From: an uncultured Verrucomicrobiae bacterium
GTDB taxonomy: Bacteria > Verrucomicrobiota > Verrucomicrobiia > Chthoniobacterales > Xiphinematobacteraceae
NCBI GenBank assembly: GCA_963706715.1
Contig: CAVPNI010000003.1
Location: forward strand, 480,001 to 544,000
Reading direction: 5' to 3'
Length of the DNA stretch: 64,000 nt
Positions 5,289-7,123 of the stretch are shown here, one piece after another. The position numbers were made by a program, and so were the translations under genes. The notes under the pieces were generated by a model that was given only the letters and a program-made list of their open reading frames with translations, had not been told where the DNA came from and made no database searches. The first letter of the stretch is position 1, and the number at the start of each line of letters is the position of its first letter.

Positions 5289-6853
5289 AGAGCGACCTCC
5301 TGGTTAGCATTCGCTAAAATTCCTTGAATAATGTCTCGTGCTTTCCGTAAATCACGCTCACGGCGTTCAAAATCAGATCCGGTACTTGATGCACAATAGA
5401 GCATTTCTTTGGAGGCTCGATTTTGGATGGTCCCACAAAGTGGGGCTTGAGCATCCAAATGATAGTAAGTTAACGAGCTATAGCGATTTTTCTCATCGAG
5501 ATGTTCGGGTAAGGGATAGCGGGTAATGACATCTTGGGCAGCTCCGGAAAGATCGATGTCTTGAGCCAAATCAGCGACATCGCGACGATCGTTCATGCGA
5601 GTAAAGAAGAACTGCTTAGCATTTCCAAAAACGATCGGACGAATTTTAGACTCTTTAAATTGTGCGTATTGCTGCACTATGGAGATAATCCACGTGTTAA
5701 ATTTAGAAAGTTGCGCGTAAAACTCCTGGATTAATTCCTCTCCTCCATTGACACCGATAGTTCGGGAGGCCTCTTCGAAGATGACCCGCTTACGGATGCT
5801 ACGAGGAAGTGTAATGATGTGTTGTCGCCCATAATTGGCAATGAGGAAGCCTGCGATTTCTTTCAGTGCTTTGTTCGATTCGGGAATATAAGTGAGATCG
5901 AAATGAGCGTATTTGCCTTTTAGATCCAGGGTGGAATGGCCACACAGAAGTTGCTGTCCGTTCCAGGGAGCCAGGAGTGTGGCGATTTGATTGATTTCAT
6001 CCCGATCATGCTCCGGAAATGGTGCCATGAGCATCATTTGATATAGTTCCAAATGAATGGGGTATTCCTCACGCTTAAACGAAGCGTAGGCCATATTGCG
6101 AATCAGTCGCTCGGTGCCTGGATCTGTGACAAATGTGGAGAGTTGGTCTCCGGAATAATTCGCGAGCCGTGATTCTTGCTCATCCTCGGAAAGTGTTTGG
6201 AATTCAGACCATGCTGTAAGGAAAGTGGATCCGGCTGGCATTGCGGTGTGCTTATAATCCTGAATGGCCATGGCCTGGCGCGCGACTTTCTCCAAACGTA
6301 CAGGATCATCCTCAAGCCATTTCTCCGCAAAGTCGCTGTAGAGTTTTTCAATATATTGGCAGATCTGGGCTTTGCGTAGGTTTCGTTTGTCCTCATCGGC
6401 TGGTGCTCCGGAAAGTTTTAAAACTAATGCGCTCGCCAGGTTAATTTGCTCGGTAGTGAGTGGAGCGCCATGGGTATCGAGGTAGTTGAGGCAAAGGTCT
6501 CCATCATCCCGTATGATAATAGGCTGTGAACCGACTGCTTGCGTCCAGATGCCATAGGTGAGTCCTTCCTCAATGATGAGGGTGTAGCCGTAATAAGGAT
6601 CAGTTTGGGTAAGCAGATCGGTAACGAATGCCGACTTGCCAGCTCGACTCATTCCTACTAGGGCGGCTAATTGTGGAGTATCGGAAACAAATGTCTTAAC
6701 ACCAACCAAGGTGTTATTAGGTCCATCATAGAGTGCTTCTGCTCCATCTAGATGTCCGGTAAATGAGCTGCTCATGGGGAGTAAGCAACAGAGCCACGAG
6801 CTATCTCCTCGGTCTTGGTGGCTGGTATAGTTCCCCCAGTTCGATTCTGTCAC
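5285..6853 (-). CDS. virB4: VirB4 ATPase, C-terminal half of a split gene
   Basis: Walker A GMSRAGKS, Walker B VIFEEA; begins with WGNY, which is also near the end of the 27500-28678 half. Confidence 0.85.
   Translation of the reverse strand: MTESNWGNYTSHQDRGDSSWLCCLLPMSSSFTGHLDGAEALYDGPNNTLVGVKTFVSDTPQLAALVGMSRAGKSAFVTDLLTQTDPYYGYTLIIEEGLTYGIWTQAVGSQPIIIRDDGDLCLNYLDTHGAPLTTEQINLASALVLKLSGAPADEDKRNLRKAQICQYIEKLYSDFAEKWLEDDPVRLEKVARQAMAIQDYKHTAMPAGSTFLTAWSEFQTLSEDEQESRLANYSGDQLSTFVTDPGTERLIRNMAYASFKREEYPIHLELYQMMLMAPFPEHDRDEINQIATLLAPWNGQQLLCGHSTLDLKGKYAHFDLTYIPESNKALKEIAGFLIANYGRQHIITLPRSIRKRVIFEEASRTIGVNGGEELIQEFYAQLSKFNTWIISIVQQYAQFKESKIRPIVFGNAKQFFFTRMNDRRDVADLAQDIDLSGAAQDVITRYPLPEHLDEKNRYSSLTYYHLDAQAPLCGTIQNRASKEMLYCASSTGSDFERRERDLRKARDIIQGILANANQEVAL
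6827..6839 (+). repeat. Left att core of nested satellite, ATAGTTCCCCCAG
   Basis: Exact 13-bp direct repeat with 27527-27539; TGGGAA arm-like repeats nearby at about 6915-6934. Confidence 0.9.
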
Positions 6854-7123
6854 TGTACACTCGTCCTTTATTTATCCATATCTACAGCTAAATTGATGTC
6901 CCAAAAATGCCAAAATGGGAAAGAAATTGGGAAGTTATCCCTCCATTTCAGGAACGTTTATGACGTCCTTTTTACAAGGTTAAAAGGTCTCCATGTAGAC
7001 CCGAAGGGATTCTCCTGAGTTCCCAATCGAGAAAGCCGAAGGGATCGATTTGAATCCTCTACCTCTTCCGAACCCTCAGTTGCTCAAGCGTTGCCCAATT
7101 TCCGATCAAAGACTCATCACCGC

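Follow-up and report, generated by a model that had tools for sequence, protein, structure and literature searches.

How does an integrase whose relatives insert in tRNA genes come to lie in a protein-coding gene of another mobile element? The question is raised by a 64,000-nucleotide stretch of DNA from an uncultured Verrucomicrobiae bacterium, hereafter the window, which corresponds to C3:480001-544000 of a 3.04-Mb genome in four contigs (G000). A 20.7-kb island carrying a tyrosine integrase splits there a gene for a VirB4/TraC-type ATPase of type IV secretion systems (T4SS), itself part of an integrative and conjugative element (ICE). The initial annotation of the window had seen in one island end a degenerate tRNA attachment end, left by a possible switch of target from tRNA-Gly to virB4. 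We give a probability of about 0.78 to the reading that the island descends from an element targeting the T-arm of tRNA genes and now resides in the VirB4-type gene of the ICE with a vestigial tRNA end. That the element has recently switched targets, leaving tRNA genes for a gene that belongs to a second mobile element, is judged likely to the same degree.

The 13-mer ATAGTTCCCCCAG is present twice in the window, as a left (6827..6839) and a right (27527..27539) direct repeat. A site with a single 13-mer exists at C3:150855-150867, in a second, partial copy of the ICE (C3:133-154 kb), and its flanks show 100% identity with the window across 139 and 174 nt. The island therefore comprises positions 6840-27526 plus one repeat, about 20.7 kb. 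It separates the C-terminal part of the ATPase gene, which includes the Walker A motif (5285..6839, minus strand, 98.8% identity to the intact gene), from the N-terminal part (27527..28678, minus strand, 99.9% identity to the intact copy). The N-terminal half runs on for 8 codons into the island before a stop, its translation ending in WPGWCWGNYSHLLLACR. The insertion site covers codons C-W-G-N-Y (380-384) inside the motif TWPGWxWGxYT, kept across 37 sampled homologues.

Window positions 6827-6935 form the left, integrase-distal junction (attL) of the island. The left repeat contains the proposed 7-bp overlap CCCCCAG (6833-6839), followed on the plus strand by the T-loop-like octamer TTCGATTC (6840..6847), a proposed core half-site of the integrase identical to the T-loop of tRNA-Phe plus 1 nt. 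The octamer opens a 25-nt vestigial slot (6840..6864, plus strand) where relatives hold a copy of the tRNA 3' part, from the T loop to CCA plus 1-4 nt. Then come the left-end motif of the family, CCTTTATTTATC (6865..6876, plus strand), which follows the tRNA 3' end in relatives, and tandem arm-type repeats (AAAATGGGAAAGAAATTGGGAAG, 6910..6934, plus strand) with similar copies at the other island end (27438-27462), at 54086-54110 and in left ends of the same-genus genome G038. The copy at 54086-54110 belongs to a relic, the left end of an older family member that abuts the 3' end of tRNA-Gly(GCC) (54041..54154, plus strand).

The comparison of these two ends on which the initial annotation was built holds in its details. 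All six strings quoted were found, GTTCGATTCTGTCAC at 6839, CCTTTATTTATC at 6865 and CCAAAATGGGAAAGAAATTGGGAAG at 6910 for the island, GTTCGAGTCCCTTCAC at 54017, CCTGTATTCATC at 54042 and CCAAAATGGGAAGGAAATTGGGAAG at 54086 for the relic; the spacing from GTTCG to the arm repeats is exactly 71 and 69 nt as claimed, and the sequence upstream of GTTCG differs, being the VirB4-type gene on one side and tRNA-Gly(GCC) on the other. The arm regions 6890-6978 and 54066-54154 share 83% identity. Upstream of the arm repeats the similarity is significant: the score of the global alignment of the 71 and 69 nt (7) was equalled by 1/5000 shuffles and 3/5000 random genomic 69-mers. The 45 nt adjoining the arms provide the bulk of this signal (29/5000 shuffles, 8/5000 genomic), and the putative T-arm part alone (26 versus 24 nt) is weak (344/5000 and 101/5000, respectively). 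ARAGORN detected no tRNA gene in the whole window, Rfam gave no tRNA match at the island end even at E ≤ 10, and at the relic it returned chance-level matches only, to the T-arm part of other RNA models.

The integrase is encoded at 26285..27436 (minus strand; Pfam Phage_integrase, 9.3e-19), retains R224, H328, R331, H354 and Y363 of the PF00589 family, catalytic residues that are conserved in 34-36 of 36 aligned relatives, and is the sole member of its family in the genome. Homologues (E ≤ 1e-30) are found in 145 of 401 genomes sampled from the order. With each integrase gene set forward and 450 nt read upstream, 26 of the 30 non-self genome loci (L007 and L012-L040) show a tRNA 3' end in reverse complement, 97-116 nt ahead of the start of the integrase. 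The same reverse-strand tRNA 3' end is present in 7/7 distinct metagenome loci with sufficient sequence upstream (L061, L062, L063, L064, L066, L068, L072). These counts exclude duplicates (L065, L071, L073), a locus with 131 nt upstream only (L067), C-terminal pieces (L069, L070) and distant matches at 23-26% identity (L074 from a metagenome, L008-L010 from genome contigs). Acceptor-stem patterns assign the targets to tRNA-Gly (16), tRNA-Phe (10, including L007), tRNA-Cys (4) and an unidentified tRNA (3); ARAGORN confirmed labels at full tRNA-Phe genes in three genomes and at the far ends of five elements.

Those far ends reveal the layout of the family. Of 10 elements fetched (up to 60 kb), 5 have a full tRNA 4-24 kb past the integrase; it agrees with the fragment in kind and orientation, and a repeat of 27-42 nt extends from the tRNA 3' end to just beyond the 5' strand of the T-stem. 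In window orientation the order is thus a full tRNA, the left end, the integrase on the minus strand and the tRNA 3' fragment, which requires the tRNA 3' part to be copied in the left end. The integrase-distal end of relatives consists of this copy followed by CCTNTATTNATC and arm repeats, and the left-end motif stands directly after the full tRNA as CCTGTATTTATC in G038 and CCTTGTATTTATC in G007. The island departs from this layout, since its flanks are the two halves of the VirB4/TraC-type gene, its repeat is 13 bp of that gene, and its end holds no gene-restoring tRNA 3' copy, no T-stem pairing and no acceptor strand; its integrase groups with tRNA-targeting integrases.

This grouping rests on a maximum-likelihood tree of 36 integrases, from which L007 and L040 were left out as too short and whose midpoint root serves for drawing only. 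The island integrase is sister to that of L061, which resides at a tRNA-Phe and is 86% identical (support 97/90); the next relative is L012 of the same genus, at a tRNA-Gly and 83% identical (joint support 100/100), and all three fall inside a Gly/Phe clade (support 100/99). The nearest integrases are therefore tRNA-associated when the tree is read by insertion site. Both checks that the initial annotation had named as able to refute it, this one and the similarity upstream of the arm repeats, thus came out in its favor. No relative was found in viral contigs. The identity of 86% with the sister places the target change within about 14% of protein divergence. At the DNA level L061 matches the island with 82% identity over 1244 nt, a similarity that ends at window position 27528, which is the core edge; past the integrase gene the two differ. 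As far as the core, whose second half-site GAATAGTT lies at 27525-27532, the integrase-proximal arm of the island (27437..27526) shares homology with its counterparts in L061 and L005. During the target change the core is thus apparently exchanged and the arm kept.

Tyrosine recombinases are expected to act on a core of two inverted binding sites flanking a 7-bp overlap. In the present family the T-loop octamer is followed, after a spacer of 7 bp, by its mirror octamer, which the element brings with it. This was established at 32 loci with a recognisable reversed T-loop, where the octamer beyond the T-loop octamer was compared with its mirror at spacers of 3-11: at spacer 7 the mean is 5.44/8 matches, with at least 6/8 in 15/32 loci, and at spacers 3-6 and 8-11 the means are 0.7-2.4, with at least 6/8 in 0-1/32 loci. 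The mirror covaries with the T-loop, GAATCGAA accompanying TTCGATTC and GACTCGAA accompanying TTCGAGTC. The joined ends of the island, in integrase orientation, read GAATCGAA-CTGGGGG-AACTATTC, a 5/8 mirror match. The 8-7-8 layout is the one expected of a tyrosine recombinase core, in which the octamer would be the integrase binding site and the 7-bp spacer the strand-exchange region. The label of eroded T-arm given to GTTCGATTC needs correction in this light: it is best read as a retained, putatively functional half-site of the integrase rather than as the product of passive erosion.

Two other ways to interpret the island ends were tried and rejected. The first took GTTCGATTC as the mirror half-site only, as a fragment at C3:954913 shows it opposite a reversed real T-loop; the orientation of relatives and the tRNA-Phe-linked end of G038 exclude this and put GTTCGATTC on the side of the tRNA copy. 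The second started from the integrase-proximal end (CTGGGGGAACTATTCTCACC...CTAGCC), which resembles the 3' end of a forward tRNA-Phe. This was not accepted as evidence, since a similar sequence is seen in the homologous arms of L061 and L005, and those are turned the opposite way towards the tRNA.

Which tRNA was the donor is less clear-cut. In G038, of the same genus, a left end of this type, complete with the same kind of arm repeats, stands after a full tRNA-Phe. Aligned on the core, the island reads GTATAGTT in the 8 nt before the overlap, CCCCCAG, TTCGATTC, TGTCACTGTACACTCGT in the next 17 nt and the motif CCTTTATTTATC; the G038 end reads TCCTCGTG, TCGGGGG, TTCGATTC, CCTCCCTAGCCACCTCT and CCTGTATTTATC; and the relic reads GGTTGATG, CCGAGGG, TTCGAGTC, CCTTCACCCGCTCCAGC and CTGTATTCATC, the first C of its motif being the last letter of its 17-nt segment. 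From TTCG to CCTNTATTTATC the spacing is 25 nt in the island and in the tRNA-Phe-linked end of G038, and 24 nt in the relic. BLAST aligns window 6840-6971 with the G038 end from the T-loop on (74% over 132 nt), and without gaps the slot is identical to the G038 tRNA-Phe end at 16 of 25 positions. Compared with the 46 tRNAs of its own genome, the slot has tRNA-Phe in joint first place (16/25); Gly(TCC) ranks 8th (13/25), Gly(CCC) 27th and Gly(GCC) 31st (11/25, with 2/12 beyond the octamer, the chance level only). These data point to the slot as the place of the former tRNA copy, where the T-loop would have been kept and the rest would be at most a faint trace, leaning towards Phe rather than Gly. 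The notion of an eroded tRNA end thus stands for the position of the slot, which is that of the tRNA 3' copy of relatives, and for the preserved T-loop.

The alternative that the ancestor targeted tRNA-Gly specifically, so that the slot would be an eroded T-arm and acceptor strand of tRNA-Gly, is doubtful. It has in its favor the relic of the same type that abuts tRNA-Gly(GCC) in the window, the predominance of tRNA-Gly among family target labels (16/36 tree rows) and the second-closest integrase, L012, at a tRNA-Gly(CCC)-like fragment. Opposed to it are the sister integrase L061 at tRNA-Phe, the left end that follows a full tRNA-Phe in G038, the low rank of Gly(GCC) and also the lower score of Gly(TCC) relative to tRNA-Phe in the slot, and the T-loop itself, TTCGAGT in tRNA-Gly(GCC) versus TTCGATT in the island. 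The switch "from tRNA-Gly" of the initial annotation is accordingly not supported. Target labels require at least 11 changes on the integrase tree, so the ancestral target is poorly fixed; tRNA-Phe would have about even odds of being that target, and tRNA-Gly or another tRNA would be a distinctly weaker candidate. The wider proposal of a single element family with several targets, whose nested copy lies in a VirB4/TraC-type gene, is supported.

Under the reading of a descendant of a tRNA-targeting element, the ancestral element would have had a tyrosine integrase recombining in the T-arm of tRNA genes, as is normal in this family. The family core pairs the T-loop octamer with a mirror octamer borne by the element, and the 7-bp overlap between them corresponds to the 5' strand of the T-stem plus 2 nt. 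As the distal end of relatives carries the tRNA 3' copy, the tRNA gene is restored after insertion. In the island the proposed overlap now matches the VirB4-type gene, CCCCCAG lying within the 13-bp identity block. The T-loop octamer TTCGATTC would have been kept because the integrase still binds it, and the other 17 nt of the former tRNA copy, no longer needed, would have drifted. The product of precise excision would equal the empty-site sequence at C3:150855-150867, and the island may still be able to excise and restore the VirB4-type gene.

The choice of the VirB4-type site bears on how the present target was acquired. The genome has 229 CCCCCAG sites, three of which contain island sequence; of the remaining 226, none comes as close to the joined-end core as the empty VirB4-type site (11/16, the next best reaching 9), and the 13-bp identity block exceeds the 7 bp needed for exchange. 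A comparison by hand of the VirB4-type site with a reversed tRNA-Phe core (13/23) lacked a chance test and was not used as evidence.

Several observations weigh against our interpretation. No closer integrase was found in genome, metagenome or viral collections, and no tRNA piece is present at 4 of the 30 genome loci (L014, L023, L031, L040), one of which has IS3-like fragments upstream (L014) and another a partial integrase match (L040). The left-end DNA is limited to the own genus (G000, G038) among the 401 genomes, and a single VirB4-type insertion was found in all searches. Within the slot, tRNA-Lys(CTT) ties with tRNA-Phe at 16/25. Beyond the octamer the match to tRNA-Phe drops to 8/17, with a binomial p of about 0.04 or 0.10 when chance identity is set at 0.25 or 0.30; the octamer is expected with any integrase that uses a T-loop-like site, so alone it is no proof of descent. 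Finally, when the distal arms are aligned, the island overlap CCCCCAG stands opposite TCGGGGG of the tRNA-Phe-linked end, and therefore the overlap was replaced or turned round, not merely mutated.

The last point finds an echo elsewhere in the genome. Reverse-complementing the tRNA-Phe-type overlap TCGGGGG gives nearly the CCCCCAG of the island. At C3:954936-957446 (L001, L097) there is another piece of the island left end, 2.5 kb long, with 99% identity over the first 141 nt and 91.5% overall. At C3:954913-957446, CCCCCAG joins this fragment to a reversed 3' fragment of tRNA-Gly(TCC), forming the perfect palindrome GAATCGAA-CCCCCAG-TTCGATTC. The arrangement suggests that a T-arm insertion took place there in the orientation opposite to the family norm, and that the polarity of the core may have flipped in the island lineage.

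The alternative that survives best, although rather unlikely, is that a tRNA-targeting element entered the VirB4-type gene just once, by accident, as a secondary site, without an evolved new specificity, and that the island is now stranded there. The uniqueness of the insertion speaks for it, as do the second left-end fragment, joined to a different site that is the reversed T-arm of tRNA-Gly(TCC), and an island that holds an insertion sequence (IS) of the IS630 type and much cargo. It has to contend with joined ends that have 13 bp in common with the target, among them the complete proposed overlap of 7 nt, with an overlap that matches no tRNA T-stem in the family orientation, with the first place of the empty VirB4-type site among the 226 CCCCCAG sites free of island sequence, and with a target that encodes a strongly conserved protein motif and an integrase that is intact. 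An evolved specificity thus comes out somewhat ahead of an accident. Convergence, by which GTTCGATTC would be an integrase binding site that came to resemble a T-loop in an island end that never held a tRNA copy, draws on the near-chance tRNA similarity outside the octamer and on the mirror octamer of the other arm, which is not tRNA-derived in the family, but is highly improbable in view of an integrase nested among tRNA-targeting relatives, of the tRNA 3' copy in all five recovered far ends, of an octamer that lies 25 nt from the CCTNTATTNATC motif, just as the real T-loop does in G038 (24 nt in the relic), and of the BLAST alignment that starts at the T-loop of tRNA-Phe.

Two of the four loci devoid of a tRNA piece, L014 and L023 (in G280 and G253), were considered as further non-tRNA targets. 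Their integrases are 54-57% identical and form a supported pair in the tree, which leaves room for such a target; both loci were set aside as uninformative, L023 showing a membrane-fusion-like open reading frame (ORF) and no clear junction. In L018, L013, L007, L024 and L068 the family left-end motif (for example CCCTGATGAATACAGG and CCGCATAAATA) is found just outside the integrase-proximal tRNA fragment; tandem arrays of the family therefore seem common.

The host of the island is itself delimited by a tRNA. Next to a full tRNA-Gly(GCC) at C3:473084-473159, 6.9 kb to the left of the window, come TTTGCTACC repeats and the gene of the ICE integrase, of 355 aa. The 3' 46 nt of this tRNA recur identically at 53995..54040 (plus strand), preceded by the same TTTGCTACC arm repeats, which lie inside both ends. 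Between the ends are encoded T4SS-type proteins (weak, sub-cut-off Pfam matches to TrbI and PF07996), which with a coupling protein and a relaxase-like protein form the neighbourhood of the ATPase gene, as well as topoisomerase III and a Toprim primase. The paired tRNA-Gly(GCC) ends and the T4SS-type genes identify a 61-kb ICE in tRNA-Gly(GCC), whose attR is 53995-54040. The tRNA-Gly piece at 54017 could be taken for the remnant of the relic's own target, a reading that is rejected because it is part of this 46-nt attR repeat of the surrounding ICE; the sequence from 54041 on is what adjoined the tRNA downstream before the ICE arrived.

The relic continues past an IS-like insertion, with DDE_5 transposase fragments in between, at 55359..55857 (plus strand). 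Its positions 55359-55573 are 99.5-100% identical to 6972-7186 of the island, and 55726-55857 are 76% identical to 7177-7308. A 215-nt stretch (6972-7186 / 55359-55573) is thus near-identical between flanks that are only 76-83% alike, which looks like the outcome of a recent gene conversion between direct repeats 48 kb apart. An orthologous relic is present in G038 (L088, G038:C18, about 16258-16400), where TTTGCTACC-like sequence, a mutated and shortened tRNA-Gly(GCC) fragment and the same left end follow one another, which dates the relic to before these species diverged.

The second ICE copy, partial and rearranged, spans C3:133424-154384 (L003) and has an intact VirB4-type gene, and further ICE pieces in reverse orientation lie at C3:200012-206979. 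The intact gene is an 866-aa ORF (C3:149406-152006) with the Walker A motif GMSRAGKS at residue 442. NCBIfam models TraC (2.7e-10) and VirB4_CagE (1.7e-8) match it, both far below curated cut-offs, and Pfam gave no match. Homologues of the split gene are named TrbE or TraC family, the more distant ones carrying PF19044/PF11130, and a sequence search for a relative of solved structure found none. The short VirB4-type database proteins P0112 and P0115 were examined as further split genes and discarded, as their ends do not fall at the site. On the C-terminal side of the island insertion, an in-frame GTG in the vestigial slot opens a 522-aa ORF (window 5285-6853, minus strand) that takes in all of the C-terminal ATPase part with its Walker A motif, so that the halves of the VirB4-type gene might be produced separately. 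The ICE also contains a group II intron (window 36035-38064) with a reverse transcriptase/maturase ORF at 36205-37884, of which a 99.95% identical copy is found at C4:279717-281746.

Apart from the integrase, the island encodes an HTH_17/excisionase-family protein (7124..7792, minus strand; Pfam HTH_17 3.3e-13, NCBIfam excisionase domain 7.5e-15 and several PHROG excisionase families), a candidate recombination directionality factor, and a P4-type primase-helicase with D5_N, PriCT_2 and DUF5906 matches in Pfam, NCBIfam and PHROGs (22753..25383, minus strand). The remaining cargo includes an ABC-type ATPase, RHS-repeat proteins and an IS630 copy. No relaxase, coupling-protein family or phage structural protein was detected among the island ORFs scanned, with Pfam on ORFs of at least 100 aa and with PHROGs on 19 ORFs, RHS proteins left out. 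Downstream of the primase gene, at a distance of 1.3 kb, three 50-nt repeats (21274-21448), spaced by 61-64 nt and with the core CAAACGTTCGCAA, mark a candidate origin of island replication. The RHS-repeat genes form an array at 13222-19880 with duplicated cassettes (14469-14768 versus 16164-16463, 99% identity), and many related copies are found elsewhere in the genome (C1:525-537 kb, C2:374-388 kb). Two single-contig genomes of about 0.9 Mb in the same genus (G009, G024) lack the island-type integrase; unlike them, the 3.0-Mb genome of the window is crowded with IS630 copies and island fragments.

The relatives of the island belong to a familiar kind of element. Williams reportedly described in 2002 a "T loop / junction" sublocation of tyrosine integrases in tRNA genes. 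Insertion in the T-arm of tRNA genes is listed in the Islander database paper, and both such targeting and tandem arrays are well known (PMC4383910). The island shares the enzyme class of these T-arm islands, and its relatives at tRNA-Gly, tRNA-Phe and tRNA-Cys have repeats of 27-42 nt and tandem arrays. It differs by its location in a protein gene of another mobile element, a target that it does not restore, and by keeping only the T-loop octamer of the tRNA copy.

Closer parallels come from elements nested in other elements. Helper-embedded phage-inducible chromosomal islands (HE-PICIs) are satellites integrated in late genes of a helper prophage, and one satellite group resides at tRNA-Phe with an integrase very similar to a late-gene-targeting one (PMC10111431). 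Like the HE-PICIs, the island has an integrase, an AlpA/HTH_17-type protein and a P4-type primase, is embedded in an essential gene and is co-oriented with it, the integrase, primase and VirB4-type genes all being on the minus strand. It differs in that its host is a verrucomicrobial ICE and its target a T4SS ATPase gene, not a prophage late gene, and in that its HTH_17 gene is at the end opposite the integrase; a dependence on the ICE as helper and a timed excision are hypothetical for it. Streptococcal integrative and mobilizable elements (IMEs) nest in the ICE genes traG (VirD4), maff2 and snf2, mostly by serine integrases, and their tyrosine-integrase cases target oriT, the authors proposing excision before transfer (PMC5357655). 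The likeness lies in a site-specific, disruptive insertion in a conserved conjugation-related ICE gene, and the difference in a tyrosine integrase of a tRNA-targeting family, a VirB4/TraC-type target and the lack of a relaxase among scanned ORFs. In the full texts searched, no report was found of a tyrosine-integrase island in a VirB4-type gene, nor of a vestigial tRNA copy marking a target switch.

A precedent for the change of specificity is the saf changes of phage lambda after use of secondary sites, where a change of the attP overlap shifts the preferred target with the integrase and its binding sites unchanged. The island resembles lambda saf in that an overlap change would shift the target with integrase and binding sites kept; it differs in that the change is deduced from comparison only and shows an apparent reversal of overlap polarity relative to the arms. 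A more ambitious reading, tentative and on balance unlikely, joins these strands: the island would be the ICE-embedded counterpart of helper-embedded phage satellites, holding the transfer machine of the ICE off until excision and coupling its own transfer with that of the ICE through one recombination. Its specificity would have arisen when the 7-bp overlap of a tRNA-Phe-type attP, set between two near-palindromic T-loop half-sites, was turned round or replaced. If this were true, the overlap change would also allow entry into T-arms in reverse orientation, as C3:954913-957446 suggests.

Changes of integrase target are usually deduced from trees alone, and here the island keeps a physical trace of its former target, a T-loop octamer where a tRNA copy was lost. 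With close tRNA-linked relatives at hand for comparison, the passage of a tyrosine integrase out of a tRNA gene and into one that encodes a protein can be addressed directly. The 8-7-8 core, whose element half-site covaries with the T-loop, provides a testable rule for site recognition. Nesting in an essential gene of a second mobile element is familiar from phage satellites and streptococcal IMEs, and the island adds to this concept a tyrosine integrase, a T4SS ATPase gene and the Verrucomicrobiota.

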